Positions 6,753 through 40,868 of a stretch of 64,000 bases of DNA are shown piece by piece. Each line of letters opens with the position of its first letter. The stretch's first letter is position 1. The position numbers and the translations under genes were made by a program. Source of the stretch: an uncultured Spirochaetaceae bacterium (lineage in GTDB: Bacteria; Spirochaetota; Spirochaetia; SZUA-6; RPPD01); contig CAZWYY010000013.1 in NCBI GenBank assembly GCA_964638895.1, positions 2,522 through 66,521 of the forward strand, written 5' to 3'. The notes under the pieces are model-generated. The model saw only the letters and a list, made by a program, of their open reading frames with translations. It made no database searches and was not told the DNA's origin.

Positions 6753-8087
6753 TTGGCCGGTAAATTAGTATTAGGCACGTTCAACGCGGAAAAATATTGG
6801 CGGGAAGACGGATTGGCCTGTCTGCCCGAGTTGTATGACGCGGGCGCGGCAAAGATCGTGCGCGCCATGGACGAGCTGTTGTTTCCCCTTTGTGAAAGGG
6901 GTGATGTGTTACTTACCCGTTTTAAGATGGACCCTGCCTTTAAAGACTACCTTAACAGGCTGGGTTTTCAATTTGTGTCAAACAATTTTAACCTGGAGGA
7001 AATCACTGCGGCGGCCGCGGGGCCGGGCGGGGGCTGTATTGAGGAACTGCTGAACCGCAAACGCCGTGACCCGCGACTCTTGGAGTTTCTGGGACCGGTT
7101 AGCTCCTTACACCCGTACGCCGTGCTCCCCGGTACGACGGAGACCGTAAAAAACTTCGGCTGGGAGGAGTGCCACCCGCCTTACGAGGCCGTGAAAAAGG
7201 TAAATTCCAAGGAATATTCCAATGAACTGAACGAGCGGATCGGTGTAAAAAAGTACGGAAAAATAATTCACAGTACGGACGAATATCATGAGACGGCCGC
7301 CCGGATAGGCAACGGAAGGGGGTTCATCATCAAGGACCTGTACGGCGTATCCGGTAAGGGGAACCTGCTTGTCGCCGGGCCCTCACTGCAGAAAAGGATC
7401 GGAAAGCACCTTGCCGCGCAGGAAGAGAAGGGTCTGGCCGTCCGCTTTCTGATGGAACCGTATTTTGACAAGGTGTATGACTTTTCCTGCCAGCTTTACA
7501 TCGGCAGGACGGGGGATTCCCGCATAGTTTCGATACAGGAGATCAAGAATTATCTCTTTACCTACATCGGTTCCCTGAGCGCCGGAGATGATTTTATCTG
7601 TTTTCTTAAGGACCGGGGATACTTCGAACTAATGCAAAAGGTTGCGGAAGAACTTTACGGCGACGGATACTGCGGCGATGTCTGTATAGACTCCATGATC
7701 CTCAAGAACGATGAGCTGGTTCCGGTGGTTGAGATCAACGCGCGTAAATCCATGGGACTGATAAATTATTACATCGACCGCTTCCTGGCTGGATATTCCG
7801 CGCGCGGATATTTTGTTTTTTTTACCGCTGTTTGTGAAGGTCGGACCGGTTTTCACGACATCCTGGAAAAGCTGGAACATGAAGGCATCCTCTTCACCGC
7901 CGCGCGCGGTCGCGGCGTACTGCCGTTGTCGGCCAATGCCCTGTTCGTGAACCAGGACGAGGAGAAGAGTTACAAAGGAAGATTTTATTTTTCCGCGGCC
8001 GCGGGCACCCAGCATGAAAGGCAGGGGCTGGTGGACCGGACCGTCAATGCCTTTACCTCGATGGGATTCCGTGTTTATTACCGCTAA
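6753..8087 (+). CDS. ATP-grasp domain ligase (TTG start)
   Basis: GFIIKDLYGVSGKGNLLV glycine-rich loop, VVEINARKSMG C-terminal motif; RBS GGAGGG upstream of TTG. Confidence 0.5.
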   Translation: MAGKLVLGTFNAEKYWREDGLACLPELYDAGAAKIVRAMDELLFPLCERGDVLLTRFKMDPAFKDYLNRLGFQFVSNNFNLEEITAAAAGPGGGCIEELLNRKRRDPRLLEFLGPVSSLHPYAVLPGTTETVKNFGWEECHPPYEAVKKVNSKEYSNELNERIGVKKYGKIIHSTDEYHETAARIGNGRGFIIKDLYGVSGKGNLLVAGPSLQKRIGKHLAAQEEKGLAVRFLMEPYFDKVYDFSCQLYIGRTGDSRIVSIQEIKNYLFTYIGSLSAGDDFICFLKDRGYFELMQKVAEELYGDGYCGDVCIDSMILKNDELVPVVEINARKSMGLINYYIDRFLAGYSARGYFVFFTAVCEGRTGFHDILEKLEHEGILFTAARGRGVLPLSANALFVNQDEEKSYKGRFYFSAAAGTQHERQGLVDRTVNAFTSMGFRVYYR

Positions 8088-8098
8088 AGGAGACATAA

Positions 8099-9243
8099 TG
8101 AAAGAAGACAAGGTTACTATTTTGGCCTCGGGCGTGGCCTTGGGAGTATATATCCCGGCCCTGCTTGTCAATTATCAGCTGCGGCGGCGCGGTGTGGCGG
8201 CTGAGGTTGTTGTTCTGGAAAATCTTTTGCTGCCTGAAAAAAAGGCGAAGATACCCGCCAACAAGCAGGCCTTTCACAGGAGTTTCCGTGTCGCCCTAGC
8301 CGGACAAAAAATGGCTGTCGACCTTTGGCCTCATTATGATAAGAAGGCGCTGGCCGGGTTATTCGACGCTTGGCAGGGGGAGGGGAGGAGGAACTTTATT
8401 GTTTTTTCCGGGTTCTGGATGTCCGTGCTCCGTGAATATATCAACACGGTTCCCGGAAACGGAATGAACGTGGAGATTGTGCACATGGACGCGGATATAT
8501 CCGCCTCGTGGCGGCTTTTCAGGCGGGAGACTACGGGGTTTAATAATGTCTGGCTGTTTGACGGGCGGAATAAGAAGGTGGACTATGAACTCAGGATCGC
8601 GCAGCATCCCCCCGTGCCGTACCGAAGCAGGCCGGACCGTTACGTAATTCACGGTGGCGGTTGGGGAATGGGGAACTACCGGGAAAAAATCGCGGAATTG
8701 GAAGAAGGCGGACTGAAGCTTGATATCGTTGCCTATGAAGCGGAGGAAACCGAGAACCTTAAAGCGGGCCACAGGAGTTTCATGATTGATCCGTGCTGGT
8801 CACCCTGGATAAAGAATAATAACGATGAACACGAGTTTCCGCCCTTCGGTCAAATAACCGGCGGCCGGGCCCCTGTATTTAAAAACAAACAGGAGTATCA
8901 CGATCTTTTTGACGTGATCCGCCTGAGCAGGGCGATTATCAGCAAGCCCGGCGGCGCTACCCTGGCGGATTCCCTGGCTTCAGCCACGCCCCTGGTTATA
9001 CTGGAGTCTTTCGGGAATTATGAGCAACAAAACGCTGAACTATGGGAGCACCTTGGTTTCGGTATCCGGTATGATGATTGGAAAACGGCAGGTTTCTCAG
9101 GGGGTATTCTGGAAAAATTTCATTATAACCTTTTATCTGCCGCGGGTTTGGCCGTGGACTATGTCAGTGATTATATAGACAGGAATTGCGGCCGCGCGCC
9201 CGGGGTCTTGGGACCGGGAAGGTCGCTTCACGGCGTAAATTAA
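8099..9243 (+). CDS. GT-B glycosyltransferase, MurG/MGDG-synthase (GT28)-like
   Basis: VIHGGGWGMGNY and KPGGATLADSLASATPLV motifs; RBS AAGGAGACA; start moved from ORF-track 8014 to ATG 8099. Confidence 0.5.
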
Positions 9244-9269
9244 CCGCCGTCTTTGTAAGGAGGATTATT

Positions 9270-10442
9270 TTGCAGCCAAAAACAGCGGTCAGGTTTGACC
9301 GGAAATCGTTCGAACGTATTAAGCGGACCATACGCAATATGTCGGTGGGCAGGAGCTCCATCAGGCAGGATCCCGGGTTTGCCATGAGGCTTCCCGATGA
9401 AATCGGCATCCAGTTGACCAACAAATGCAATCTGCGCTGCCGCCATTGTTTTCAATGGAATGAGGAGGGTTTTTTCAACAGCTTTGACAAGGGAACACAG
9501 AAAGACGAGCTTGATTTCCCGCTGATAGAAAAAATTCTGGCTCAAACGGCGGGCGTCAAATCCAACCTGTATTTATGGGGCGGTGAACCGCTTTGTTACA
9601 CCCACTGGGATGAGCTTTCGTATGCCCTGGAAAAGGATCCGCGTTGGACGGTCTTCTGTACGAACGGCATCGATGTTGAGAAGAAACTCGAGTCCCTGCT
9701 GCGGGTGTCCTCATCACTCGCCATGCTTGTCAGCGTTGAGGGGTTCGAGGAAGAGCACGACGCGGTCAGGGGCCGGGGTACGTATAAGAAGGTGATGGAA
9801 AGTATCGATCTGTTATTGAAGCTGAAAAGACAAAACAAGTTCAAGGGAGAGGTGTCCGTCAACTGTGTGATAAACGAGAGTATGATCGGGAAGCTGTATC
9901 AGTTCGCCCGGATGTTCGAGGAAAATGGCATCAACACCCTGTATTTCTGTTTTCCGTGGTACATCCCCCGCTCGTCCGCGCTGCATATGGATGCGTTCTT
10001 TAAAAAGAACTTCGGCTGGCTGCGCACATTGGACAATGACCATGCCGCGAGTTGGCATTCCTATACATACCATCTTTCCCCCGACGTGACGCGCGCGCTG
10101 ACGGCCGATTTGGGCCGGGTAAGCGAAAAGGTTTGGAAAATAAGAATGCGTTACCAGCCCGCGCTTAAGCCCGGAGAGATTGAAGGTTTTATCAGGGGTG
10201 AGGAAACCACAGCCCAGAAAAGAAGCAAATGTATCGGTCTTACCAACCGCATGAATGTCATGCCGTCGGGAAAGGTCACCGTCTGTAAGCTATTCCCGGA
10301 ATTTGAAATAGGCGACCTTACGGGTTCGGGCGTTGAAGAGGTATGGAACAATGAGACCTTCAGGCGGGTGCGTGAAATCTTAAATCGGGGACTGACCCCG
10401 GTCTGTTCAAAATGCATTCTCCTTTATCTGCACGGGGTGTAG
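9270..10442 (+). CDS. Radical SAM/SPASM-domain enzyme (AtsB/PqqE-like architecture)
   Basis: LTNKCNLRCRHC, GGEPL, C-terminal CIGL...VCKLFPEFEIGDL...CSKC; TTG 9270 with AAGGAGG at 9257-9263. Confidence 0.7.
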   Translation: MQPKTAVRFDRKSFERIKRTIRNMSVGRSSIRQDPGFAMRLPDEIGIQLTNKCNLRCRHCFQWNEEGFFNSFDKGTQKDELDFPLIEKILAQTAGVKSNLYLWGGEPLCYTHWDELSYALEKDPRWTVFCTNGIDVEKKLESLLRVSSSLAMLVSVEGFEEEHDAVRGRGTYKKVMESIDLLLKLKRQNKFKGEVSVNCVINESMIGKLYQFARMFEENGINTLYFCFPWYIPRSSALHMDAFFKKNFGWLRTLDNDHAASWHSYTYHLSPDVTRALTADLGRVSEKVWKIRMRYQPALKPGEIEGFIRGEETTAQKRSKCIGLTNRMNVMPSGKVTVCKLFPEFEIGDLTGSGVEEVWNNETFRRVREILNRGLTPVCSKCILLYLHGV

Positions 10443-10451
10443 CGGATTACA

Positions 10452-11528
10452 ATGAAGACCTACAGCTTTGTTATTCCCACGTATAATAAAAAAGCACTCC
10501 TAAAGAACACGCTTGAAGCGCTGAACTACCAGCCGGGCTACGGCTACTATGAAGCGGTTGTGGTGGACGACGGCTCGGACGACGGCACCCGTGATTATAT
10601 CAAGGAAACGGCCAGGAATTACGAGCTGAAGTATCTCTACCTGGAAAGGGATATGAATTCGTGCCGGGCCAGAACAAGGAACCACGGATGGAAGAACGCC
10701 GGGGGCGAGGTGATTGTCTTCATCGATTCGGATATAATCATCAAGCCGGATTACCTGGCGGAGCTTGAGCGCTGCTTTGGGCTTGATGATGATATCGCGG
10801 TTATCGGCAACAGGCTGATGCTGCCGGAACCGTCGACATATAAAGAGGTGACCGGCCTGGAGATCTACCGGAAATACGGCTTCGGCGGGCATAAGGATCT
10901 GCGGGAGTTCCGGTACCTTTTATACGGAGATACCTCCTACAATATCAACGCCCATGCCTACCCCTGGACGCAGTTTTACAGTTGTAATGCGGCGCTGCCG
11001 AAGAAATGCCTGGAACAAACCGGCGGCTTTGATGAAAATTTCAAGGGCTGGGGCGTGGAGGACATTGAGCTTGGTTATGAGCTGTATAAAAGGAACATTC
11101 CTATTGTCATAAACCATAAACTGGAAGTGTTTCATCAGTATCACGGTCCGAGGAACGACCTGTCCATTAAGCCTGAGCTTGTTCCCGACTATGAAAGGAA
11201 TATCGCTTACTTTCTAAAGAAACATCCGCAGTCGCTACACATGCCCGACAAGTATAAGTATGATTTTTTAAAAGGCGAGTTAAAGGACGATTCGTTTTTT
11301 AGCGAAAACGGCAAGCGGTATATCGGCGTGGATTTCAGAGACCGGTCTCAATTGGGTAATCTGAAGAACCTGCTGCTCAAGTCGATATCCAGGGATAAAA
11401 CCGTCATAGTGGTTAATGACTACCTTGAAAATACGGACCTTGATATCTGGATTCAGCTTCCCAAAAAGCAGGGGCAGATCACGGCCCGCTATTTCCCAAT
11501 GTCAAAAAAGGCGGAACGGCACGGATGA
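10452..11528 (+). CDS. Family 2 glycosyltransferase with a conserved C-terminal extension
   Basis: FVIPTYNK, VVDDGSDDGT, FIDSDI; paralog of 14112-15290 including the tail VNDYLENTDLDIWI...YFPMSKK. Confidence 0.7.
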   Translation: MKTYSFVIPTYNKKALLKNTLEALNYQPGYGYYEAVVVDDGSDDGTRDYIKETARNYELKYLYLERDMNSCRARTRNHGWKNAGGEVIVFIDSDIIIKPDYLAELERCFGLDDDIAVIGNRLMLPEPSTYKEVTGLEIYRKYGFGGHKDLREFRYLLYGDTSYNINAHAYPWTQFYSCNAALPKKCLEQTGGFDENFKGWGVEDIELGYELYKRNIPIVINHKLEVFHQYHGPRNDLSIKPELVPDYERNIAYFLKKHPQSLHMPDKYKYDFLKGELKDDSFFSENGKRYIGVDFRDRSQLGNLKNLLLKSISRDKTVIVVNDYLENTDLDIWIQLPKKQGQITARYFPMSKKAERHG

Positions 11529-12328
11529 GAGTCTTTATCACGGTTATAAAACTCTACCTCAAGGTGATGATCCAATACCGCACAACCTTCATGCTTTCGC
11601 TCATCGGGGAGCCTGTGCTGTATCTGATCAATATCATTTATTTTTCCGCCATCTATGCCTACAATGGCAAGGACACGGTTTTGGGTTATAGCCTGACCCA
11701 GATGATATGGTATTTTGCCGGTATATCACTTGTCTGGCAGTGTATCTGGAACTCCACCGACAATAATATCTCTCAAAAGATTCTATCCGGCGACCTGGCG
11801 GTAGACCTGTTGAAGCCGTTTTCCACGTTAAAACTGGAACTGGCCTATGCCCTGTCGGCGAGAATCCTGGCCGTTATGCTGGAGTTTGTACCGGTTCTGG
11901 CCATATACATGCTGCTTTTTTTCCCCGGGTTTATCACCATTTTTGTGGTAATCAAATTTTTGATCGTCATGCCCCTGTCTTTTCTTATGTTTTTTCTGTT
12001 GAACTACCTGATCGGGCTGACGGCATTTTTTATTAAAAACAATACCTCCCTGCAGACCGTCAAGTACGTGCTTATTACCCTGACGGCCGGCGGGTTCATT
12101 CCCCTGGATTTTTTTCCGCAATGGGTGCAGCGCGTAACCGGAGTGCTGCCGTTTCAATACCTTTTTTACTGGCCAATTCAGATCCTTTTAAACCGGGAAA
12201 CGACAAAGGGGTGGGAAAATTTTACGCGAATCGTTTCCTGGCAGTTGTTATGGATAGCGGGCTTTTATCTTTTATCCAGGATTTTCTGGAAACGGGCAAT
12301 AAGAAAATATTGCGCCGTGGGGGGATAG
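11525..12328 (+). CDS. ABC-2 type transporter permease
   Basis: About six hydrophobic segments; C-terminal KRAIRKYCAVGG similar to the next permease; 4-nt overlap with upstream gene. Confidence 0.55.
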   Translation: MRVFITVIKLYLKVMIQYRTTFMLSLIGEPVLYLINIIYFSAIYAYNGKDTVLGYSLTQMIWYFAGISLVWQCIWNSTDNNISQKILSGDLAVDLLKPFSTLKLELAYALSARILAVMLEFVPVLAIYMLLFFPGFITIFVVIKFLIVMPLSFLMFFLLNYLIGLTAFFIKNNTSLQTVKYVLITLTAGGFIPLDFFPQWVQRVTGVLPFQYLFYWPIQILLNRETTKGWENFTRIVSWQLLWIAGFYLLSRIFWKRAIRKYCAVGG

Positions 12329-12377
12329 CGTAATATTAATCCTCAACCTGTTCAGATTTTTCTTACTCAACAGCAGA

Positions 12378-13124
12378 TTGAAACTGTTACGGGGAATGCA
12401 GTACAAGACCGACTTCTTCATGGGCATATTTCTGTCCATGAGCTTTTCCAGTCTGGGTCCCCTTTTCCAGTACCTTATCTTCAGCCAGACAAGGGGATAC
12501 CCGCGCTGGAACCTGAAGCAGATCATCCTATTCCAAGGTGTGGTACTCTTATGGCTGGGTATAAAAGACCTGCTTTTCGGAGAAATACGCGGTTACGTGG
12601 AGAGTATGGTAAAAGGAGGGAATTTCGACAGGCTGCTGCTTAAGCCGTATCCCCCTCTGGGCGTTATCCTGACCAGCGGCTTCTATTACCATGCCTTTGG
12701 CACGATTATCGCGGGAGCGGTAATCATTGCCGTTTCCCTTCAGCAGTTGGGACTGGTCTTAAGCTGGTGGCAACCGCTGCTTTTCGTGGGTTTCTTTGCC
12801 TGCGGCATTTTGCTGCATATGACCATAACCATATTGTACTGTATCATGATTATCAGGCTTACCCACATGGGACGGCTGGGAGAAATCATCGACAAACTGC
12901 TCCAGTTCTCCCAATATCCCCTGGATATCCTTTCCCCGGTTCTCCGCATGGCCCTGATGGTGTTTCTGCCGATCGCCATCTGGATCTATTTCCCCACGGA
13001 GATCCTGCTTGACAGGCTTGAGGTGAACGCTTTCATGGGAGTGGCGGTGGCTCTTGCACTCTTCTTTGCCAGTCTTTTTTTATGGAAGAGAAGCCTTAAG
13101 AGATATACCAGTGCGGGAGGGTAG
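12378..13124 (+). CDS. ABC-2 type transporter permease (second subunit)
   Basis: Polytopic hydrophobic protein; C-terminal KRSLKRYTSAGG. Confidence 0.55.
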   Translation: MKLLRGMQYKTDFFMGIFLSMSFSSLGPLFQYLIFSQTRGYPRWNLKQIILFQGVVLLWLGIKDLLFGEIRGYVESMVKGGNFDRLLLKPYPPLGVILTSGFYYHAFGTIIAGAVIIAVSLQQLGLVLSWWQPLLFVGFFACGILLHMTITILYCIMIIRLTHMGRLGEIIDKLLQFSQYPLDILSPVLRMALMVFLPIAIWIYFPTEILLDRLEVNAFMGVAVALALFFASLFLWKRSLKRYTSAGG

Positions 13125-13127
13125 GTT

Positions 13128-14111
13128 ATGAGTGATAACATTATCAAAATAAAAAACTTAAAGAAGGTCTTCAAGGTGCGGGTAAAAAGTAAAGAAGGCA
13201 TGTGGGCTTCGGTAAGGCTGCTGTTTAAAGGAGAGTACAAGCTGGTGACCGCGGTTGACGGATTGAGCATGAATGTGAAAAGGGGCGAGATAAAGGGGCT
13301 GATCGGTCCGAACGGTGCCGGAAAGTCCACCACCATCAAAATAATTTCTGGTATTCTTTTTCCCAGTGAGGGTACCGTGGATGTGCTGGGGTTTACGCCG
13401 TGGCTGCAGAGGAGGGAGTACGTCAGGCACATCGGCGTACTCTTCGGTCAAAAAACGCAGTTGTTTTGGGATTTACCCCCTATGGACACCTTTTTACTGC
13501 ACAGGGAAATGTATAAAATACCCGAAAAGCGCTTTCGGAAAAACGTGGCGTATTTTAAACAGGTGCTGCAGCTGGAAGAGGTGGTAAAAAGGCCCGTACG
13601 GAATCTCTCCCTGGGAGAGAGGATGAAGTGCGAGCTGGTGTGCGCCATGCTGCATGAGCCGGAGCTTGTCTACCTGGACGAGCCGACCATCGGGCTTGAC
13701 CTGTTTGCCAAAGAGTCCATCAGGAATTACATCAAGCGGATTAAGAAAGAGAAAAACACCACCTTTATCCTGACCACCCATGATCTGAATGAAATTGAAA
13801 ATATCTGTGAAAACGTCAGTATCATCAATAAGGGCAAAATCGTATATAACGGGGCGCTGGAGAATCTCAGCTCCTTTTTTACAAAACGGAAGATTATCGA
13901 GGTGAAGTTTACGCGGAAAACGGACACGACGGCGCTGGGTAATTTCAAGATTGTTTCCTCCAACCCCTTTTCCGTAAAGATCGAGGTGGACCTGACAAAA
14001 AACAAGATTCAGGACGTCGTGTACGGTATTTTTAACGTACTGCCGGTACAGGACATCAATATACAGGATGTCGGTATCGAGGATATCATAAAACAGATTT
14101 ATACACGGTAA
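13128..14111 (+). CDS. ABC transporter ATP-binding protein with a ~90-aa C-terminal extension
   Basis: GPNGAGKSTT Walker A, LSLGERMKCEL signature, LVYLDEPTIGLD Walker B. Confidence 0.8.
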   Translation: MSDNIIKIKNLKKVFKVRVKSKEGMWASVRLLFKGEYKLVTAVDGLSMNVKRGEIKGLIGPNGAGKSTTIKIISGILFPSEGTVDVLGFTPWLQRREYVRHIGVLFGQKTQLFWDLPPMDTFLLHREMYKIPEKRFRKNVAYFKQVLQLEEVVKRPVRNLSLGERMKCELVCAMLHEPELVYLDEPTIGLDLFAKESIRNYIKRIKKEKNTTFILTTHDLNEIENICENVSIINKGKIVYNGALENLSSFFTKRKIIEVKFTRKTDTTALGNFKIVSSNPFSVKIEVDLTKNKIQDVVYGIFNVLPVQDINIQDVGIEDIIKQIYTR

Positions 14112-15290
14112 ATGAAGTACAGTATTGTAATTCCCACCCATAACAATAAAATCCTCTTGAAAAATACGCTGGAAGCCTTAAACCGCCAAAATGGATTCGG
14201 GAAAGACGATTACGAGGTGATCGTGGTCGACGATGGTTCACAGGACGGTACGTGGCGCTTTATCCGTGGGGTAGGGAGAAACTACGAATTAAAATACCAC
14301 TACCTTGAAAGGTGCAAGGACTCTTGTCGCGCCAGAACCAGGAATTACGGGTGGCGGAACGCCGGCGGTGATATTGTGGCGTTTATCGATTCCGATATCC
14401 TGGTGGCGGATGACTATCTCTTACAGCTTGAACGTTGCTTTTCAATAAGCGAGGATATCTTGTTAATAGGCAACCGCCTCATGCTCAACAAGCCCGTCTC
14501 CCCGGGGAGTATTGCCGGCGGAAGGGTGTTCAGGGATTTTGGTTTTGACGGAAATGATTTCAGTATCCTGGAATTCCGTTATTTTCTGTACGAGGTAGCG
14601 TCTTATAACGCCAATGCCATCATGTGTCCCTGGATGCAGATTTACAGCTGCAATATGGCCGTTTCGCGGAACTGGCTGCACAAGGTCGGGGGTTTTGATG
14701 AGCGCTTCAAGTTTTGGGGCATGGAGGACCTTGAAATCGGTTTTGCCCTTTACGACGCCGGGATCCAGATCGTTATCAATCCCAAGTTGGAGGTTCTGCA
14801 TCAATACCACGGCAGGCGCAATGATCTGGTGGTGGAGCAGAGAAAAATCGCCGGGTATGAAAAAAATATCGATTATTTCCTGGACAAACATCCCCACGCG
14901 CTCCGCATGGGTAGAAAATTCGCCTACAAATTATTCAAGGGGGAAATATCCTCTGATAAAATGCTTATCGACAACAAATGGGAAAAGACCGTGCTGGATT
15001 TCAGGGACAGTACCAGGCTGAATGAGATCAAGGACGTGATTTTAAAATTAAGCGCCAAAGAAAAAATAAAGCCTATTGTCAATGATTATGTTGAGGATAC
15101 AGACCTGGATATCTGGATCAACCTGCTGGGCGTCACACCCAGCGTAGTGAAGTATTTTCCCATGTCGAAAAGGCTCCCTGCGGGCAAGATGCTGAGTTTT
15201 TTGAAAGAGGAGAAAGCACGACAGCTCGGCACCCCGCCGACCGGATCCTGCCGCGAATTTAATACCGATGGAATAAGAAATGCAAATTAG
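14112..15290 (+). CDS. Family 2 glycosyltransferase (paralog of 10452-11528)
   Basis: IVIPTHNN, VVDDGSQDGT, FIDSDI; conserved tail VNDYVEDTDLDIWI...YFPMSKR. Confidence 0.7.
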   Translation: MKYSIVIPTHNNKILLKNTLEALNRQNGFGKDDYEVIVVDDGSQDGTWRFIRGVGRNYELKYHYLERCKDSCRARTRNYGWRNAGGDIVAFIDSDILVADDYLLQLERCFSISEDILLIGNRLMLNKPVSPGSIAGGRVFRDFGFDGNDFSILEFRYFLYEVASYNANAIMCPWMQIYSCNMAVSRNWLHKVGGFDERFKFWGMEDLEIGFALYDAGIQIVINPKLEVLHQYHGRRNDLVVEQRKIAGYEKNIDYFLDKHPHALRMGRKFAYKLFKGEISSDKMLIDNKWEKTVLDFRDSTRLNEIKDVILKLSAKEKIKPIVNDYVEDTDLDIWINLLGVTPSVVKYFPMSKRLPAGKMLSFLKEEKARQLGTPPTGSCREFNTDGIRNAN

Positions 15291-16260
15291 TATCCAACTT
15301 GAGAGGGTTGCCTGCAATATGAAATGTAGGGCATGTTATAATCATGACGGAAACCTCAGGCAAACTTCTCACGGCGCCGAAACCCGAAAATTGTTTTATA
15401 AAATAGAATTTATCAGACAGTCCATGGAGATATTTAAGGATTTATCCGTGGAAATTTTCGGCGGGGAGCCTTTTGTCTCTAAGGAAGAGCTTTATTTTTT
15501 GCTGGAGTATCTGTTTAAAAAAAACATACCGGTTTTTATCGTTACCAATGGAATTTTGCTTAATGAAAAGACCGTAAAACGTATTGCCAAATACGGGAAT
15601 CTGCTGCTTTTGGTGTCTTTTCACAGCTACAGGGAAAGAGGGTACAATTTGTACACCAATTCAAAAGGTAATTACCCCATCCTTGCTAAAAATTTGAAGT
15701 TATTGGTGAAGTATAATATCGATTTTAAACTCACCACCGCATTAATGCGTTTGAATGAAAATTATATCGTGGATCAAATCAGCTTTTTTAAAGAGAGTTT
15801 CAACCGGCCGGTCTACTTGTCATTTATTAATCCCACCTTCAACAATACCGACTGGCTTAAACTGCAGATAATGGCGCCCGCGCAGATACAGGAAACACTG
15901 TTGAGTATCCGCAAAAACCATCCGGATGTGTTGAGTGATATTGATATGGAGTATGTCTTCGATTATTACGACGGGAGATGCAAGGGACAACCATGTGATT
16001 TTATGAGTAAAAACCTGATTTTAAATAATAACGGGGTTTTAAACCTGTGTTTTATCGGTGATACACTGCCCTTTGATTTTTTTGAACTTCCGGACTTAAG
16101 CTCGTATATGGAATACATATATCCAAAAAACCGGGAATTACAAACATCAAATTTTTGTAAAAACAACAGCTGCCAGATATTGCAGGTAACCTGCAGGGAA
16201 AAGTTTGTACCCCGATATAGTACCGCAGGTGAAAAGGAAACAAATTTATGCAAGCATTGA
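15280..16260 (+). CDS. Radical SAM enzyme with C-terminal Cys residues
   Basis: CNMKCRACY, FGGEPF; overlaps upstream gene by 11 nt. Confidence 0.6.
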   Translation: MQISIQLERVACNMKCRACYNHDGNLRQTSHGAETRKLFYKIEFIRQSMEIFKDLSVEIFGGEPFVSKEELYFLLEYLFKKNIPVFIVTNGILLNEKTVKRIAKYGNLLLLVSFHSYRERGYNLYTNSKGNYPILAKNLKLLVKYNIDFKLTTALMRLNENYIVDQISFFKESFNRPVYLSFINPTFNNTDWLKLQIMAPAQIQETLLSIRKNHPDVLSDIDMEYVFDYYDGRCKGQPCDFMSKNLILNNNGVLNLCFIGDTLPFDFFELPDLSSYMEYIYPKNRELQTSNFCKNNSCQILQVTCREKFVPRYSTAGEKETNLCKH

Positions 16261-17681
16261 AACATAAAAAACAGAAGACCAGGCTGTTGCTGCTTCGCCC
16301 TTTTTATGGGATCACGGTTCACGGTGACATGCACGGCGACCTGGGGATCTCCGATCACCATCCGCATATTTACCCGGATCTGTCCTTTATTTACGCGGCA
16401 ACCATCGCCAAACACTCCCGGGTTACAGACCTGCACGTTATCGACGCCAATTCCGGTGAGTTTATGCCGGCGGCCGTATGGACGCAGATGGAGGATTATT
16501 ATGATATCATTATAATAAAAACCGCGGCGCCTACCGTGCGGTATGACCTGATGCTCGCAAAAGAGATTTTGAAGCGTTATCCCTTTTCCAGGGTCATACT
16601 GGCGGGGCAGGCGGCGAATCTCGTCCGAGGCTGGATAGAACGTAATCTGCCGGGCATATATGACATAGCGCGCGTTCCTTTGGAGTATTACGTACATAAC
16701 ATGATTTACGGTAGCCAAGAAATCTGTATGAATGATCTGCCCAGTCCTGATTATTCCCTGTTTCCCTATGAGAAACTCAGGGATATGGACGGGAATTTAC
16801 GCGGCTCGCTGTATACAAGCCGCGGCTGCGCGGTAGGCTGTTCGTACTGCCCGTATTCGCATTTTTACGGGCGTAACATGGAGTTCCGCTCCCCTGAACT
16901 GGTGATAAATGATATCAAACATCTTCTGGCTTTGGGTTTCAAGAAAATTCTTTTTCGCGACCAGTATTTTTCAATCAATCCGAGAAGAACCGAAGAGATC
17001 TGCCGGATGATTCTAAAACAGGGACTCAGGTTCAACTGGGAGTGCGAAACGCGGCTTGAGTCGCTTACGCCGAAGCTCATTAACCTTATGACGACAGCCG
17101 GAATGGATATGGTGTGTTTCGGCGTGGAGACCGCCTCACCGCAAACCCTGGAAACATACAACAGGCCCCCGGTTGACGAGGAAAAACTGGTGAAACTGAT
17201 CAATCACCTGCACACCAGGAAGGTAATGACCATAGCCTTTTACATGATTGGTTTTCCCAGGGACACATGGAGCATAATCCGTCAGACCTATGAGCTTGCC
17301 GTGCGCCTGGCCAGCAACAGCGCAAAATTTTCAATCTTCTCACCCTGTACCCCCCTTGTATATCCCCACCTGGAGCTGACCCCCGCGGAATTCACGCCCC
17401 TTGAGAATACCATGACCACCAATCCCTGTAAAAACCTGAGCAGAAAGGAGCTTGAGTTTCTGGTGGACCATTTGAACAATCTTTACCACACGGACATTGT
17501 GCGAAAAGAATCACGCAAAAAAAACTACATTGAGGTTATCTATAGGTTTCACGTTATGCACCAGATGAGATATCACAGCCTGGTAAAATACCTTAAAAAA
17601 AAGCTTGCGGAAGATAAAATCTTCAATATTGCCGTAAAAAAAGTCCAAAGGAGAAGAGCAAATGCATACAAGAGGATTTGA
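16248..17681 (+). CDS. B12-binding-domain radical SAM enzyme (class B-like)
   Basis: N-terminal LLLLRPFYG Rossmann-like region, then YTSRGCAVGCSYCPY. Confidence 0.6.
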   Translation: MQALKHKKQKTRLLLLRPFYGITVHGDMHGDLGISDHHPHIYPDLSFIYAATIAKHSRVTDLHVIDANSGEFMPAAVWTQMEDYYDIIIIKTAAPTVRYDLMLAKEILKRYPFSRVILAGQAANLVRGWIERNLPGIYDIARVPLEYYVHNMIYGSQEICMNDLPSPDYSLFPYEKLRDMDGNLRGSLYTSRGCAVGCSYCPYSHFYGRNMEFRSPELVINDIKHLLALGFKKILFRDQYFSINPRRTEEICRMILKQGLRFNWECETRLESLTPKLINLMTTAGMDMVCFGVETASPQTLETYNRPPVDEEKLVKLINHLHTRKVMTIAFYMIGFPRDTWSIIRQTYELAVRLASNSAKFSIFSPCTPLVYPHLELTPAEFTPLENTMTTNPCKNLSRKELEFLVDHLNNLYHTDIVRKESRKKNYIEVIYRFHVMHQMRYHSLVKYLKKKLAEDKIFNIAVKKVQRRRANAYKRI

Positions 17682-18831
17682 AAGCAACAAGGGAACCATT
17701 AAAGGCCCCAAGAAGATGCAGGGCAGGTACTGCCTGCAGCCGTTTACCAATATTGATATTCACTCCAACCATGGGGTCCGCTGCTGCAGTGAGTCCTGGA
17801 TGCCGTCGTGGATCGGGGATTTTTCCACGCATAACCTGAAGCAAATTTGGAACGCGCCCGCCATCCAGGCCATACGGCAGAGTATTTTGGACGGAAGTTA
17901 TTCATTTTGTGATTGGCATCAATGTCCTTTTTATTGCAATGACTCCTATTACCTGTACTCGCGGGAGGAGTTGGAGAATCCGCAGGGCCTTGGAGGGGTG
18001 GACGCATACAGACTTGCGAAATACGCGCCATGGATCAGGTATATTCTGCAGGAAAAAACCGAACTCGACATCCTGCCCGCCAATTACAACCTGGCCTATG
18101 ATGAAACCTGTAACCTGGCCTGCCCCAGCTGCCGCAAAAAAAGGGTGGCTTTCAGGAAGGGGGCGGAGTATACCCTGCGCTTGGGGATTCATAACAAGCT
18201 GTTAAAGGAGGTTAAGGAGAACGGGTTTGAACATATCGGACGCTTTAACCTGACCGGCTCCGGTGAACCCTTTGTGTCTCGTATTTTCACTGATTTTCTC
18301 TATAACTTTGACGGCGGGAAGTATCCGCGCCTGGATATTAATATTCAATCCAACGGGGTTCTCTTTACTCCCGCGGCCTGGGCCAGGATGAAAAAAATCC
18401 ACGTTAATATCAATGAGGTTATTATTTCATTGGACGCCTGCTGTGCCGAGACCTATAAAAAAATCCGGGTAAACGGCTCCTATAAAAAACTCCTGGTCAA
18501 CATTGAATTCCTGGCCGCGCTGCGCGCACAGGGCAAGATCCGCCGTTTTATGCTGGCTTTTGTGGTACAGCAAAAGAATTACCGTGAAATGCCCCGGGCC
18601 GTAAAAATGGCGAAATACTACGGCGCGGATCTTTTTATCTTTAATCTGTTAAACGACTGGAAATCGTGGAGTCCCCGGGATTATGAGGCAAACGCTGTGT
18701 GGAAGAGTTTTCATCCGGAATTCGAGGAGTTTCTGGGGGTTTTAAGGGATCCCGTGTTCAATGACCCCATTGTTGACCTAGGTAACATGATCGAGTATCG
18801 CAATAGGGCCTATTCTTATGCCGGGGCTTAA
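17662..18831 (+). CDS. Radical SAM enzyme with an N-terminal Cys-rich region (related to family A)
   Basis: CLQPF...HGVRCCSESW...CDWHQCPFYC, then CNLACPSC and LTGSGEPF. Confidence 0.6.
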   Translation: MHTRGFESNKGTIKGPKKMQGRYCLQPFTNIDIHSNHGVRCCSESWMPSWIGDFSTHNLKQIWNAPAIQAIRQSILDGSYSFCDWHQCPFYCNDSYYLYSREELENPQGLGGVDAYRLAKYAPWIRYILQEKTELDILPANYNLAYDETCNLACPSCRKKRVAFRKGAEYTLRLGIHNKLLKEVKENGFEHIGRFNLTGSGEPFVSRIFTDFLYNFDGGKYPRLDINIQSNGVLFTPAAWARMKKIHVNINEVIISLDACCAETYKKIRVNGSYKKLLVNIEFLAALRAQGKIRRFMLAFVVQQKNYREMPRAVKMAKYYGADLFIFNLLNDWKSWSPRDYEANAVWKSFHPEFEEFLGVLRDPVFNDPIVDLGNMIEYRNRAYSYAGA

Positions 18832-18857
18832 AAAAACAGCACCAGGGGGGTGATACA

Positions 18858-20249
18858 ATGAATATATTTCCAAGCACGTTTCATCGAAAAAAGCCCATGC
18901 TCATAATGTCCAATGGAAGCGAGCGCGGGGAGTTTGTGCCGATCGGGCGTATTTTTTCATGCACGCAGAGAATACATGACGGTATCCAGGCCTTAAAGGC
19001 TTATTATCCGTACGAGGCCAACTGGTCACCGCATCATAAAATATCCGAGGTAAGCCGCCGGGAAGAGGTGGATTTTGCCTGGGGCTATGAGTATGAGGAT
19101 TACCATCCCTTCAACCTGAATGCACGGGGGGGTGACTGCCGGGGGCAGTTCGAGGATATTAAGCGTTACGGGTCGGATCTGCACCTGACATTGGCCATGG
19201 ACCTTTCGCTGGGCGACAGGGATATAGAAGAGGTGATACGATCTTTAGGGCCGTACGGGCGCATATTCTTAAGGATTAACCATGAATGTAACGGCAACTG
19301 GTTCCGCTTTAATAAATACCACAGTTACAAAGAGGTAAACGATTTTTTTGTCCGCTGCCACCGGATTGTGAAGGCCAATTCATCACAGATATTTACGGTC
19401 TTCAGTTTAAGCGGGGATTTTTTTGCCCGGGAAAAGGTGGTCAGCGACTTCTTTTTACGGATCGCACCGGATGAGATGAGAGAAGCGCTTGAGCTGGCCG
19501 ATTATTGGTCCCTGGACAGGTATTCTTCTCTGCACTACGGCTGGCCCTTTGAGCAGACCATAAACCCAGAAAGCACGAATTCGTATTTCAAGGGCACGGC
19601 GGATGACTGGTGGCATTTAATTGAAGAGTGCTACCTCAGCATGATCTGGCATAACGGTTTGAAAATGAAACCGCTGTTCATTAATGAGTTTAATGCGGAT
19701 TCCAACGTTGACGGCCTTCAGGTTCAGGCGGAAATCGTGGGCAGCGTTTATGATAGGCTGTCAAGGGGAGATTTCGCCTGGCTTGCCGGAATCGCCTTTT
19801 ATCAGTACCGCGACCTGGGAGGACTGGGCCTGGAGAAGGGAAACACGGATAAGTTCTCCGAGAACCCCGTACTGGAAGTGTATCGCCGGGCCGTGAACAC
19901 CATACGCTACCATACAAAAATCGAAGACTGGCAGGAATGGCCGCGGGGCGAGTACTATTTCTCCTGGTACAACTCCGATTCCATCCGTGGATTATGCGTT
20001 CGCGGCGCCGGGGAACAAAAACAGTTTACCAACATCCTTCCGGTTCCGGTATACCTTGTGCTTGAAGAACAGCAGTGGGTGCGGCTTGAATCCGGGCAGG
20101 CATGCGGTATAAACGGACAGGAGCAGTTTTTTATGCTTGTGCCTCCCTATGTGGATGCGGCTGATAGAATTCAATATTCATTTGAGGTGCGGGACATTAA
20201 ACAGGCTTTGGGCCGGATGATGGCGGTGAAAAGTGAAATCTGCAATTAA
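18858..20249 (+). CDS. Hypothetical protein, possibly a TIM-barrel glycoside-hydrolase-like fold
   Basis: 463 aa, no Cys cluster; weak motifs LRINHECNGNW and FINEFNADSN; RBS GGGGGG upstream. Confidence 0.25.
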   Translation: MNIFPSTFHRKKPMLIMSNGSERGEFVPIGRIFSCTQRIHDGIQALKAYYPYEANWSPHHKISEVSRREEVDFAWGYEYEDYHPFNLNARGGDCRGQFEDIKRYGSDLHLTLAMDLSLGDRDIEEVIRSLGPYGRIFLRINHECNGNWFRFNKYHSYKEVNDFFVRCHRIVKANSSQIFTVFSLSGDFFAREKVVSDFFLRIAPDEMREALELADYWSLDRYSSLHYGWPFEQTINPESTNSYFKGTADDWWHLIEECYLSMIWHNGLKMKPLFINEFNADSNVDGLQVQAEIVGSVYDRLSRGDFAWLAGIAFYQYRDLGGLGLEKGNTDKFSENPVLEVYRRAVNTIRYHTKIEDWQEWPRGEYYFSWYNSDSIRGLCVRGAGEQKQFTNILPVPVYLVLEEQQWVRLESGQACGINGQEQFFMLVPPYVDAADRIQYSFEVRDIKQALGRMMAVKSEICN

Positions 20250-21315
20250 TAATTATTTAGACGCGGAGCAAACCGAGGAAGAAATTAAGCGCGGGTTCGA
20301 GGAAAATATCTCCGCTTACCTGGACTGCCGCTATGCCGTCCCGGTTGTCAATGGCACGGTTGCGCTTGAGGTTGCCCTGCGCGGGCTGGGCCTCTCACGG
20401 GGAGACTGCGTTATTGTGCCTGATATCTCCTTCATCGCCACGGCCACGGCCGTGGCCAATTGCGGCCTGGTGCCGGTGTATGCGGATGTAAGTCCCACAT
20501 ACTTCGGACTTACCCTGGAAACACTGCAAAACAGGAATTGTTCCGGGGTAAAAGCCGTGGTGCTGGTACATTTTTCCGGGTTTGTCAACAGGGAGCTGTT
20601 TGAGATAATCGAATACTGTTACAGTAACGGCCTGGCCCTGGTGGAAGACTGCGCCCAGGCGTTTGCCTGTACGGCCCACGGTAGAAAGGTGGGCACCTTC
20701 GGCGACGCGGGCGCGTTCAGTTTTCAATCCTCCAAAAGTATAAGCGCCGGTGAAGGGGGGCTTGTCTGCACCGACAAGCGGCACCTGGCCGCGCAGTTCC
20801 AGGCCGTTTCCGACTGGGGGATGAGCCCCTTGTTTAAGCGCCGAAAACTTGCGCTTGCCAGCAGCAACTTCCGGCTCAGCGCCCTGCAGTGTTATGTTTT
20901 GGGCCGGAAACTCGAACATATCGACAGCACGGTAGCGGCAAGACGCGAACGCTGCGCCCGGTTGGAAGACGCCTGCCGCGAACTGGGCCTGGAACACTGT
21001 CTGCCTGCCCCCAGACCGGAATATTTTGACTGCCCCTTCTTTTTTCCGCTGAAAAGCGCGCGCAAACTTAACAGCATAGAGCCCCGGGAAGAGTCTCCCC
21101 TGCATAGATCCGCCATAGTAGTCGCCATTCTGGAACGCTTTTACCCGGATCTGCTGAAGCGGTATTATGAACTCAATCCTCCCGGGGTCATGTCGGAATT
21201 CGCCGGCAACAAGGTTATTACTGATATTGATTTTATCAACATCAGCCAAACATGGAATCTGCCCGCGGATCAGGTAGTGTCTGCGTACAAGGAGGCGGTG
21301 TTATGTCGGAAATAA
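20233..21315 (+). CDS. DegT/DnrJ/EryC1/StrS-family PLP-dependent (sugar) aminotransferase
   Basis: VNGTVALEVAL, GDCVIVPDISFIATA, FSFQSSKSISAGEGG (PLP Lys). Confidence 0.75.
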   Translation: MKSAINNYLDAEQTEEEIKRGFEENISAYLDCRYAVPVVNGTVALEVALRGLGLSRGDCVIVPDISFIATATAVANCGLVPVYADVSPTYFGLTLETLQNRNCSGVKAVVLVHFSGFVNRELFEIIEYCYSNGLALVEDCAQAFACTAHGRKVGTFGDAGAFSFQSSKSISAGEGGLVCTDKRHLAAQFQAVSDWGMSPLFKRRKLALASSNFRLSALQCYVLGRKLEHIDSTVAARRERCARLEDACRELGLEHCLPAPRPEYFDCPFFFPLKSARKLNSIEPREESPLHRSAIVVAILERFYPDLLKRYYELNPPGVMSEFAGNKVITDIDFINISQTWNLPADQVVSAYKEAVLCRK

Positions 21316-22325
21316 TGGCCCTGCGGCACCAGTTTGAAAAAACCGAAAATATTCTGCTTGTAGACTGGTGTGTCAGCAATATCTGTAATTTCGCCTGCTC
21401 GTATTGCCCGGAACATACCCACGCGGGTACGCATCCGTTTATGCCAATTAAAAATATCCTACTGTTTTCGGACCGGATTGTGGATCACTACGTAAAGAAA
21501 CTGCATAAAGAGGTCTATTTTCTTTACACGGGTGGCGAGGTGACCTTGTATAAGGATTTTATTCCCCTGATCCGCACTCAAAAAGAGAACGGCCACCGTG
21601 TGAGTATCAGTACCAATGGATCGCGCAGGTTGTCCTTCTGGCAGGAGGTTAAAAAATACCTGTTCCAGGTAAGCATGAGCTACCACGATGAGTATACGGA
21701 CCTGGATCATTTCATCAATGTAATAAACCTGATAAAGTCGGACACCTATACCCATGTTAATATCATGGTCCAGCCCGACCGCTTCCAGCAGTGTCTGGAC
21801 GCGGCCTACCGGGTGCTGCATGAAACCGATGATATCACCATCGATCTCCAGATTGTGTTGAGGGATTTCATCGAGCCTTACCCATATACAAATCAGCAGC
21901 GCAGGCTCATCATCGCGGTGGGTAAGGAAATCAACGGCAAACTGAAACTAAAACGCAAGCGGGACAGTTACCGCGGGCTGATGAAACTTGTGTTTCGTGA
22001 CGGCTCACACGAGTTGGTAAAACCCGGTGATCTTCTAACAAGAAATTTGCACGCCTGGCGGGGCTGGAGCTGTTACATTGGTCTTGAGATCCTGGTGGTT
22101 GATCTGAACGGTGATATCTACAGGAGCTGGTGCGGCGACGCCGGTAAAATCGGGAATATTAATGATGAACAGATACACTTTCCCACAAAACCGCATATCT
22201 GCGGCAGGGCCTATTGCAGCGGGGGGATCACCGACACCATGGTCACAAAAATCAAGGAGGCATGTAATGAGCAGCCGGACGACAGCCGGAGTGTTCTCGC
22301 CGTTTACAATCAGGGACGGGTTTGA
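21303..22325 (+). CDS. Radical SAM enzyme, family B (paralog of 2333-3358)
   Basis: CNFACSYC, YTGGEVTLYKDF, C-terminal WRGWSCYIGL...CGRAYC; AAGGAGG RBS before ATG 21303. Confidence 0.7.
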   Translation: MSEIMALRHQFEKTENILLVDWCVSNICNFACSYCPEHTHAGTHPFMPIKNILLFSDRIVDHYVKKLHKEVYFLYTGGEVTLYKDFIPLIRTQKENGHRVSISTNGSRRLSFWQEVKKYLFQVSMSYHDEYTDLDHFINVINLIKSDTYTHVNIMVQPDRFQQCLDAAYRVLHETDDITIDLQIVLRDFIEPYPYTNQQRRLIIAVGKEINGKLKLKRKRDSYRGLMKLVFRDGSHELVKPGDLLTRNLHAWRGWSCYIGLEILVVDLNGDIYRSWCGDAGKIGNINDEQIHFPTKPHICGRAYCSGGITDTMVTKIKEACNEQPDDSRSVLAVYNQGRV

Positions 22326-23292: not shown

Positions 23293-23307
23293 AGGGAGGG
23301 TTTTCTG

Positions 23308-40802: not shown

Positions 40803-40868
40803 AAAAATAATAATTGACAACTGTTCCAGGCGTTTTATAATAAATACTGTTTAAAGGAGGGCGTGAAT

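Follow-up and report, generated by a model that had tools for sequence, protein, structure and literature searches.

Background

To our knowledge, carrier-protein-dependent glycosylation is confined to a few actinomycete pathways, among them those of mitomycin and pactamycin, and the noncanonical thiotemplated (NCT) loci that pair an ATP-grasp enzyme with a carrier protein have given two characterized products, butirosin and closthioamide. The PtmJ step of pactamycin biosynthesis is homologous to the glycosylation of mitomycin biosynthesis, which depends on an acyl carrier protein (ACP). Radical S-adenosylmethionine (SAM) enzymes and DegT aminotransferases tailor non-nucleotide glycosides in the aminoglycoside pathways (BtrN/BtrS, AprD4/AprD3) and in that of blasticidin (BlsE/BlsH), and radical SAM enzymes of the SPASM type are often maturases of peptides that are made on the ribosome and modified after translation (RiPPs). 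Here we describe an operon from an uncultured Spirochaetaceae bacterium (assembly GCA_964638895.1) in which an ACP, glycosyltransferases (GT), a DegT aminotransferase and radical SAM proteins are encoded together. It was studied in a stretch of 64,000 nucleotides (contig CAZWYY010000013.1, positions 2,522 to 66,521 of the forward strand), the whole of which is called the window; all coordinates are those of the window.

In mitomycin biosynthesis, MitB glycosylates ACP-bound 3-amino-5-hydroxybenzoic acid (AHBA), and a set of ACP, ligase, glycosyltransferase and radical SAM enzyme builds the mitosane core from N-acetylglucosamine (GlcNAc) (PMC8621148). In closthioamide biosynthesis, CtaD couples aspartate to a peptidyl carrier protein (PCP); genome mining revealed a large uncharacterized family of loci with CtaD and PCP that encodes a glycosyltransferase, and decarboxylase and transacylase partners were optional in that survey, being present in 65% and 45% of the loci (PMC7183216). 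In pyrrolamide biosynthesis, a glycoside hydrolase (GH)-like enzyme beside a DegT protein functions in dehydration, and hydrolysis is the role of a GT-like enzyme (PMC12983305).

The window carries an expanded member of a widespread, uncharacterized carrier-linked glycosylation cassette together with a mobile radical SAM sugar-tailoring module. Our reading is that a thiotemplated glycosylation cassette (module A) and a sugar-tailoring module (module B), each conserved independently of the other, have been joined in one co-transcribed operon, and we put its probability at roughly 50%. Literature searches found no published characterization of the cassette.

Organization of the operon

The ORF coordinates on the forward strand form one compact run of about 24 genes (43–27722) in which overlaps are common. 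Pfam and NCBIfam scans revealed eleven radical SAM proteins in this operon, an ACP (3423–3695), two FkbM methyltransferases, two GT2 proteins, an ABC-2 exporter (11525–14111), a DegT protein and an old yellow enzyme (OYE)-type reductase. A preliminary description of the window, made from the sequence alone, had treated the interval 8099–21315 as a single sugar-handling set; within or beside it, three proteins matched no family in the same scans (6753–8087, 8014/8098–9243 and 18858–20249). The main features are as follows.

3423..3695, + strand: stand-alone acyl carrier protein, module A (PF00550 PP-binding, E 6.9e-11; GLDSI phosphopantetheine-site motif)
6753..8087, + strand: putative BtrJ/CtaD/PGM1-type ATP-grasp ligase, module A, the probable loader of the ACP (sub-threshold Pfam matches; Ruminiclostridium hungatei homolog)
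8098..9243, + strand: member of a new GT-B glycosyltransferase-like family ("GT28-like"), module A
9270..10442, + strand: radical SAM/SPASM protein, module A (PF04055 and PF13186; the mechanically called ORF begins at 9186)
10452..11528, + strand: GT2a, with a family-specific C-terminal tail, module A (PF00535, E 1.2e-25)
11525..14111, + strand: ABC-2 exporter, comprising PF06182 permeases at 11525–12328 and 12378–13124 and an ATPase at 13128–14111 (Pfam)
14112..15290, + strand: GT2b, paralog of GT2a with the same tail (PF00535, E 3.4e-22)
15280..16260, + strand: radical SAM protein bridging the two modules (PF04055, E 5.2e-17; overlaps its neighbours at both ends)
16248..17681, + strand: B12-class-like radical SAM protein, module B, similar to PhpK, HpnJ and AprD4 (NCBIfam, below all family cut-offs)
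17662..18831, + strand: radical SAM protein with an N-terminal SPASM/twitch-type domain, module B (SPASM at residues 24–88, followed by Radical_SAM at 149–287)
18858..20249, + strand: clan GH-A-like TIM barrel with a C-terminal beta-sandwich, module B (AlphaFold2 model, Foldseek)
20233..21315, + strand: DegT/DnrJ/EryC1/StrS aminotransferase, module B (PF01041, E 5.7e-60)
21252..22325, + strand: radical SAM protein, module B (PF04055, E 4.8e-11)
22111..23292, + strand: OYE-type flavin oxidoreductase, module B (PF00724, E 2.9e-44, residues 157–361 only)
23308..25038, + strand: FkbM methyltransferase with a C-terminal extension of about 340 amino acids (aa), part of module B in the closest relatives (PF05050)

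The carrier-protein cassette

Eighty loci around homologs of the GT-B gene were fetched and all proteins of the window were compared with their ORFs; adjacency was counted in the 57 loci having full flanks. Homologs of the ATP-grasp-like protein (6753–8087) are present in 61 of the 80 loci, those of the ACP in 56, with a diverged ACP cluster over 20 loci, those of the radical SAM/SPASM protein in 53 and those of the ABC-2 transporter genes in 31–38. Full-length GT2 homologs that include the tail occur in 15. The DegT protein has a homolog in one GT-B locus (L037), and the protein encoded at 18858–20249 in none of the 80. The ATP-grasp gene lies directly 5' of the GT-B gene in 29/57 loci and the radical SAM/SPASM gene directly 3' of it in 26/57, and ACP homologs adjoin the GT-B gene in most related loci. 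One GT-B homolog (P0098, 486 aa) is a fusion in which an N-terminal ACP with a DSLS motif precedes the GT-B protein. In cyanobacterial loci an AMP-binding ligase takes the place of the ATP-grasp gene beside the ACP. A gene identical to the radical SAM/SPASM gene at 9270–10442 is called, with 390 aa, on a JGI contig.

The ATP-grasp-like protein itself matches PreATP-grasp, ATP-grasp_3 and PGM1_C below the Pfam thresholds, and weakly a biotin carboxylase in NCBIfam. It aligns end to end (26% identity, E 9e-31) with a ligase of R. hungatei that passes the thresholds of all three Pfam models. Loci of the R. hungatei type add two BtrH_N proteins, an AMP ligase, a thioesterase and a pyridoxal phosphate (PLP)-dependent decarboxylase of the Orn/DAP type; those of Paenibacillus add a luciferase-like monooxygenase, a BtrH_N protein and a GFO/IDH/MocA oxidoreductase. 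The enzymes predicted for these related loci are the toolkit of butirosin side-chain and closthioamide biosynthesis.

Lipid glycosylation, which had been proposed in the preliminary description for the GT28-like enzyme, finds no support in this setting: what is conserved beside the enzyme is an ACP with an ATP-grasp ligase, and the GT also occurs fused to an ACP. Since the GT-B gene adjoins genes for the ACP, the ATP-grasp enzyme, the radical SAM/SPASM protein and the ABC-2 exporter, and is fused to an ACP in P0098, an acceptor tethered to the carrier protein appears more likely for this enzyme than a membrane lipid.

The GT-B glycosyltransferase-like protein

The GT-B gene occupies an ORF at 8014–9243 with an in-frame ATG at 8098, eleven bases past the upstream stop (8087). 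It had been placed at 8099, which is out of frame (the frame from this base holds 12 stop codons), but the gene exists and the motifs quoted for it, HGGGWGMGNY and KPGGATLADSLASATPLV, are found in its product at invariant columns of an alignment of 21 family members. An AlphaFold model of the protein (21 homologs; mean pLDDT 87.8) has the GT-B fold with two Rossmann-like domains. Foldseek placed GT1 natural-product transferases at the top, followed by MurG and MGD1, with GT1 and GT28 scoring about equally.

Among solved structures and curated models, the UgtP-type diacylglycerol glucosyltransferases are the sole type of relative at the sequence level: the family profile matches UgtP, a UDP-glucose enzyme, along the final 82 residues of the donor half (E 4.6e-5), where the UDP-sugar-binding motifs KPGGATLAD and E..N of the GT-B protein, both invariant in the family, align with TKPGGITLTE and QEKEN. 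For the acceptor (N-terminal) domain, a profile search of solved structures found no sequence relative. Pfam gave no match for the window protein at E <= 10; five of the 21 family members match PF04101 below threshold (best E 0.012), and none of the 21 matches the GT1 models (PF00201, PF13528, PF03033 and others) at E <= 10. The NCBIfam UgtP models score 19 bits against the protein, their cut-offs being 500 and above, and the family profile reaches SnogD with E 0.3 only. The likeness to MurG and MGDG synthase suggested at the outset therefore holds for the fold and for the UgtP-type similarity of the donor half; no family model is matched at threshold, and the fold is equally that of GT1. Judged by these profiles, the label "GT28-like" is fair for the nucleotide-sugar half, and the family as a whole is unclassified.

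This family numbers more than 634 homologs, with relatives in at least 410 species-level genomes of the Spirochaetota, Bacillota (Paenibacillus, Cohnella, Ruminiclostridium hungatei, Clostridium zeae), Cyanobacteria, Bacteroidota and Margulisbacteria. The nearest relatives of the window protein, at 57–59% identity, are in metagenome-assembled genomes of Spirochaetota and Bacillota.

The paralogous GT2 proteins

The products of 10452–11528 (GT2a) and 14112–15290 (GT2b) had been called GT2 paralogs, and they are: PF00535 is matched with 90.8 and 79.6 bits (cut-off 23.3), and the two proteins share 53% identity over 353 aligned residues (E 6e-136). Their best solved relative is the chondroitin synthase K4CP (E 4e-20), and their best NCBIfam match is the exopolysaccharide enzyme EpsD, with E about 1e-32 but below the cut-off. 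As to the DxD metal/nucleotide-binding motif, both carry VVDDGS and the DSD of FIDSDI, the first and last D of this DSD being kept in at least 90% of a 17-sequence alignment.

An unusual C-terminal segment shared by the two had also been pointed out. It is real, rare and without a Pfam model, yet what the proteins share is not this tail alone, the alignment showing paralogy over the whole length. The tail (approximately residues 240–358) is conserved in relatives, with the motif D..E..D.D.W.Q...Y.P.S in the same 17-sequence alignment. A HMMER search of 1.84 billion cluster representatives with a profile of the two window tails matched 53 clusters; most full-length matches are 350–400 aa long with the tail at about 245–355, and the two that were scanned carry an N-terminal GT2 domain. 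One match, P0291, a eukaryotic insect-allergen repeat protein, was dropped as spurious. By profile and alignment the tail is a genuine, rare, family-specific domain.

In the nearest loci, which are from Spirochaetota, two GT2 copies flank the GT-B and radical SAM genes. GT2a is closest to the "upstream" copy of these loci (62% identity) and GT2b to the "downstream" copy (60%), and since each pairs with a different copy the duplication is old. In another locus, a GT2 protein with the tail is fused to a radical SAM/SPASM protein (P0274; L170, 8001–10202) directly 3' of a multi-module nonribosomal peptide synthetase (NRPS), and genes for a DUF6365 protein and an NTP_transferase come after it; this fusion is a second link of the GT2 subfamily to carrier-protein machinery. 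One may speculate that the tail is a docking domain for the carrier protein.

The proposed sugar-tailoring module

The gene at 20233–21315 had been assigned to the DegT family, correctly: PF01041 is matched with 203.9 bits (cut-off 19.8), and the protein has the Schiff-base lysine, not the histidine of the dehydratase type, FSFQSSKSISAGEGG aligning with FSFFGNKIITTGEGG of the perosamine synthetase 3bn1. It is thus a genuine aminotransferase of the sugar type. Among solved structures it comes closest to perosamine synthetase (1.3e-35) and glutamine:2-deoxy-scyllo-inosose aminotransferase (1.6e-33), the scores of inosose aminotransferases being nearly those of NDP-sugar enzymes; against the NCBIfam equivalogs it stays below every cut-off, the best being a LegC-family model (139 bits against 420). 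The N-terminus is short, a length that is common to its module relatives (341–366 aa).

The preceding gene (18858–20249) lies inside the interval of the preliminary description, which did not mention it. Its product has no match in Pfam, NCBIfam or, at the sequence level, the Protein Data Bank (PDB). The AlphaFold2 model (mean pLDDT 91.5) is a (beta/alpha)8 barrel with a C-terminal beta-sandwich, for which Foldseek retrieved a GH26 lichenase (E 3.5e-12) and then GH79, GH39, GH53 and GH5 (to 1e-6). In 27 sequences, N141-H142-E143 and E277 are invariant; in the model they follow the strands at 136–140 and 273–278, so that the glutamates are predicted to be the canonical pair of clan GH-A after strands 4 and 7. 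The protein has 141 homologs. More distant relatives (31–37% identity) include at least 575 metagenomic matches, many from human and termite gut, that are without module B neighbours; most metagenomic loci of the family were of this distant kind and gave no help in delimiting the module.

Three radical SAM genes accompany these two. The B12-class-like protein (16248–17681) matches PhpK (2e-28), HpnJ (5e-25) and the AprD4 diol-dehydratase family (1.7e-22) in NCBIfam, all below cut-off, and has syntenic homologs in loci L086 and L087. The protein with the N-terminal twitch domain (17662–18831), which has no sequence match in the PDB, has homologs at 76% (L086) and 65% (L087) identity and was found in all module B loci examined. 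Homologs of the third (21252–22325) reach 73% (L086), 60% (L087) and 77% (L091).

The module also stands by itself. L086 holds the B12-class-like radical SAM, twitch radical SAM, GH-like, DegT, radical SAM, OYE and FkbM genes in the order of window positions 16248–25038, at 47–76% identity, with neither ACP nor GT. In [Clostridium] polysaccharolyticum the same set is accompanied by an epimerase/dehydratase of the short-chain dehydrogenase/reductase (SDR) type, a GH94 enzyme and an ABC-2 transporter; L169 is similar, with a GH116 enzyme in addition, and L168 is a minimal set of radical SAM-SPASM, GH-like, radical SAM and DegT genes. The DegT gene adjoins or lies near the GH-like gene in L086, L087, L168 and L169. 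In L037, the only GT-B locus with a DegT gene, the latter adjoins a B12-class-like radical SAM gene beside a module A locus that has a GT2 gene with the tail. The DegT gene is present in one of 80 GT-B loci and locked to module B; its inheritance is not coupled to that of the glycosyltransferases. A single "sugar-handling set" does not describe these genes, module B occurring without a glycosyltransferase in other genomes.

As called mechanically, the OYE ORF (22111–23292) shares its first 215 nucleotides (nt) with the radical SAM gene before it. Its real start is probably later, near 22320, because the Pfam match covers residues 157–361 only and homologs are 306–322 aa long.

Proposed pathway

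The pathway is best read as one to a noncanonical thiotemplated glycoconjugate in which amination comes after glycosylation. In module A, the ATP-grasp enzyme, like BtrJ and CtaD, would charge the holo-ACP with an amino acid in thioester linkage, and the GT-B enzyme would move a sugar from a common housekeeping UDP-sugar to the ACP-tethered intermediate, for which the action of MitB on MmcB-bound AHBA is a precedent. The GT2 enzymes with the tail could then attach further sugars, the SPASM radical SAM enzyme would modify the product and the ABC-2 pump would export it. In module B, radical SAM chemistry (dehydrogenation or diol dehydration) may yield a keto or enone sugar, either on the assembled glycoside or on the free sugar. 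The DegT enzyme would transaminate the keto-sugar and the OYE enzyme reduce the enone, with the GH-like protein supplying, trimming or transglycosylating the sugar.

Module B would thus probably make an amino sugar without nucleotide-sugar tailoring enzymes. It had been noted beforehand that no nucleotide-sugar dehydratase or nucleotidyltransferase is present, and we likewise found none in any large ORF of the window; the first operon gene begins at base 43, so genes further upstream are possible. The conclusion drawn at that time, that the amino-sugar donor must be made elsewhere, need not follow: if a radical SAM enzyme of module B supplies the keto intermediate, neither enzyme would be needed.

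Several points weigh against this reading. Gene content, folds, conserved motifs, co-occurrence and gene fusions are observations; from them we infer every substrate, the order of the steps and the product. The assignment of the ATP-grasp protein of the window goes through a Pfam-positive relative, its own matches being sub-threshold. In Pfam and NCBIfam scans the operon has no decarboxylase, BtrH-type transacylase or thioesterase of the kinds found in related loci, which leaves chain processing and release from the ACP unexplained. The B12-class-like radical SAM protein scores 80 bits against the AprD4 family, the cut-off of which is 500. An SDR epimerase/dehydratase is encoded in two of the module B loci that stand alone, so that the DegT enzyme may act there on a nucleoside diphosphate (NDP)-keto-sugar. 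By analogy with the pyrrolamides, GT-like and GH-like proteins beside a DegT enzyme can have non-canonical roles (PMC12983305).

Alternative functions

If the GT28-like enzyme, in the manner of MurG, MGDG synthase and UgtP, glycosylated a membrane lipid, with the GT2 enzymes extending the head group and the DegT enzyme supplying an amino-sugar nucleotide donor for which the remaining biosynthetic genes are located elsewhere, the product would be a glycolipid. The UgtP-type enzymes being the only sequence-level relatives, the weak PF04101 matches in five of 21 family members, the chance that an ACP-bound acyl chain is the lipid acceptor and that the ACP-paired AMP-binding ligase of Cyanobacteria is a fatty-acyl ligase are all in keeping with this. 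The similarity, however, extends over no more than about 80 residues in the half that binds the nucleotide, the acceptor domain having no relative in sequence, and GT1 natural-product transferases fit the fold as well as GT28. Conserved beside the GT-B gene, moreover, are not lipid-synthesis genes but those for an ATP-grasp ligase of the amino-acid type and for an ACP, the latter fused to the GT in P0098, and the DegT gene is not co-inherited with the glycosyltransferases; a glycolipid is accordingly considered unlikely. We give equally little weight to a surface glycopolymer or glycoconjugate of the capsule or O-antigen type, exported by the ABC-2 pump, the sugars of which would be decorated by the radical SAM and FkbM enzymes while the ACP delivers a non-sugar substituent, for example an aminoacyl group. 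The window showed neither an initiating phosphoglycosyltransferase nor Wzx/Wzy, a polymerase or any NDP-sugar gene, the permeases are of PF06182 and not of the Wzm-type ABC2_membrane family, and related loci bear the secondary-metabolite enzymes BtrH_N, thioesterase, decarboxylase and NRPS. These points outweigh the presence of GT2, FkbM, DegT and ABC-2 genes, typical as they are for polysaccharide loci, the sub-threshold EpsD match of both GT2 proteins, and the sensor kinase flanking the operon, in which GGDEF and a periplasmic sugar-binding-type domain are found together.

The GT-like and GH-like proteins might also neither transfer nor hydrolyse sugars, and act with the DegT and radical SAM enzymes to turn a sugar into a non-sugar skeleton such as a pyrrole or an aminocyclitol. 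Precedents are the pathways to pyrrolamides (Man15/Man18), pactamycin, mitomycin and hopanoid cyclitol ethers. The pyrrolamide dehydratase beside DegT and the GT-like hydrolase (PMC12983305), the mitosane core built from GlcNAc by an ACP, ligase, GT and radical SAM set (PMC8621148), the sub-threshold match of the B12-class-like radical SAM protein to HpnJ and the minimal module B loci wholly devoid of GT agree with such a role. Man15 is however GH42-like, whereas the window protein matches no GH model of Pfam and is nearest in fold to GH26 and GH79; both canonical clan GH-A glutamates are invariant, which fits glycosidase or transglycosidase chemistry, and the nucleotidyltransferase and sugar dehydrogenases of the pyrrolamide pathway are absent from the window. 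This proposal is held to be as improbable as the two above. Far less probable still is a RiPP matured by the SPASM radical SAM enzymes and then glycosylated. Such enzymes are common RiPP maturases, RiPP maturases are among the top NCBIfam matches (all below cut-off), and SkfB is the best, indeed the only, PDB match of the radical SAM protein of the cassette (E 5e-6). Yet no precursor ORF was noted in a list of ORFs of 80 aa and above, the gaps between genes being at most about 65 nt except for one of 213 nt (27723–27935). The conserved small protein is a PP-binding ACP and not a precursor peptide, and its conserved partners are ATP-grasp or AMP ligases.

The reading as a thiotemplated glycosylation cassette joined to a sugar-tailoring module is therefore preferred. 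A Pfam-less GT-B family with fixed partners (ACP, ATP-grasp, SPASM radical SAM and ABC-2 proteins) would define a GT-bearing branch of the NCT loci. Hundreds of species have the cassette, some of them culturable (Paenibacillus, Cohnella, Ruminiclostridium hungatei and Pedobacter among these), and the proposed glycosylation on the ACP is open to direct testing in vitro through mass shifts of the carrier protein. Three families, namely the GT-B family, the GT2 tail and the GH-A-like family, are without annotation models. Neighbours in a long operon may stem from modules that are inherited separately, and here this changes the interpretation of the DegT gene. A more far-reaching combination of claims is tentative and on balance doubtful: that the unclassified GT-B family glycosylates carrier-bound aminoacyl intermediates, giving a new class of thiotemplated glycoconjugates in at least 410 species and five or more phyla; that module B is a new radical SAM route to amino or deoxy sugars, with a new clan GH-A family, by which the tailoring of nucleotide sugars is bypassed; and that the GT2 tail docks the carrier protein.

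Other genes of the operon and the window

Two radical SAM proteins near the start of the operon (43–1323 and 3717–5003) are 54% identical paralogs, both full-length N_Twi_rSAM proteins (NF033640; 366 and 335 bits, cut-off 170) in which the auxiliary-cluster (twitch/SPASM) domain is N-terminal to the radical SAM core. The FkbM proteins (5007–6734 and 23308–25038) are likewise paralogs, with 25% identity over the full length, including their C-terminal extensions of about 340 aa, which align; the second has syntenic homologs in L086 and L091. The product of 1320–2330 shows a weak YpsA/SLOG match only (E 0.04), and that of 26478–27722 a weak methyltransferase match (E 0.008), its homologs in Spirochaetota cassettes being far larger proteins. 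The gene at 27936–28589 encodes a 217 aa protein without a family match; a 48% identical homolog lies 3' of module B in L091, the closest metagenomic relative, and the gene may belong to the operon. A scan for promoters and terminators did no better than on shuffled sequence and is silent on sub-operons.

Beside the operon, on the minus strand (29331–32987), a hybrid sensor of 1218 aa combines a periplasmic sugar-binding-type domain with HisKA, HATPase, REC and GGDEF. In a Spirochaetota relative, a Peripla_BP plus sigma-54 activator (L002, 1–2155) stands just 5' of the cassette. The sensor and this activator suggest that regulation is by a ligand, either a small molecule or a sugar. At a distance of about 17 kb, a Peptidase_C39_2 protein (papain-like, BtrH_N-related) with TPR is encoded on the minus strand (45158–46237) near AMP-binding (phenylacetate-CoA-ligase-like) genes, and a link to the ACP pathway is possible. 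The remainder of the window includes an Lhr helicase (34915–39546), a DUF3160 protein (40863–43619) and, on the minus strand (46287–57838), a housekeeping block of the anaerobe type with three AMP-binding_C_2 ligases, an indolepyruvate/pyruvate:ferredoxin oxidoreductase pair and a branched-chain amino-acid ABC importer. The GC content is about 0.48 in the operon and 0.55–0.62 in this block.

Comparison with characterized systems

With GT28 enzymes (MurG, MGDG synthase, UgtP) and GT1 enzymes, the GT-B protein has in common the glycine-rich loop that opens the C-terminal domain (HGGGWG), and with UgtP the KPGGxTxxD and E..N motifs. It differs from both families in an identity of 10–15%, in matching no Pfam or NCBIfam model at threshold, and in having an ACP and an ATP-grasp gene as neighbours in place of cell-wall, lipid or aglycone genes.

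Module B resembles the pyrrolamide set of Man15 (GH-like dehydratase), Man16 (DegT) and Man18 (GT-like hydrolase; PMC12983305) in that a clan GH-A-like protein adjoins a DegT enzyme in an operon that also has GT-like enzymes. Man15 is GH42-like, in contrast to the GH26- and GH79-like fold found here, and radical SAM enzymes dominate the window operon, in which the nucleotidyltransferase and sugar dehydrogenases are lacking. With the systems BtrN/BtrS, AprD4/AprD3 and BlsE/BlsH the likeness is of another kind: the DegT protein of the window, a relative of the inosose aminotransferase, is locked to radical SAM proteins of the SPASM/twitch type and of a B12-class-like type, and the window lacks an NDP-sugar 4,6-dehydratase. 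The radical SAM matches are all far below the family cut-offs, and neither a 2-deoxy-scyllo-inosose synthase nor nucleoside genes occur in the window, whereas OYE and GH-A-like proteins are extra core members of module B.

The NCT pathways of butirosin (BtrI/BtrJ/BtrK/BtrH) and closthioamide (CtaD/CtaE/CtaF/CtaG) share with module A a stand-alone carrier protein beside an ATP-grasp ligase, for which the PGM1/CtaD type is predicted in the window through Pfam models. Decarboxylase, transacylase and thioamide synthetase are all lacking in the window; the loci related to it bring the PLP decarboxylase, BtrH_N transacylase, thioesterase and luciferase-like monooxygenase. The glycosyltransferase of the NCT survey was named as GT1 PF13528 (PMC7183216), a model that none of the 21 members of the window family matches. 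Radical SAM/SPASM proteins and the ABC-2 exporter set the window cassette apart as core partners.

The mitomycin set MitE-MmcB-MitB-MitD follows the same logic as module A at the level of the pathway, with a ligase, an ACP, a GT acting on the ACP-bound substrate and a radical SAM enzyme (PMC8621148). MitB, of about 33 kDa, has ACP-bound AHBA as its acceptor, whereas the loader in the window is an ATP-grasp enzyme and the acceptor presumably an amino acid; deacetylase and AHBA genes are absent from the window. The cyanobacterial variant of the cassette, with a radical SAM protein, an AMP-binding ligase, an ACP and the GT-B protein, matches the mitomycin set gene for gene.

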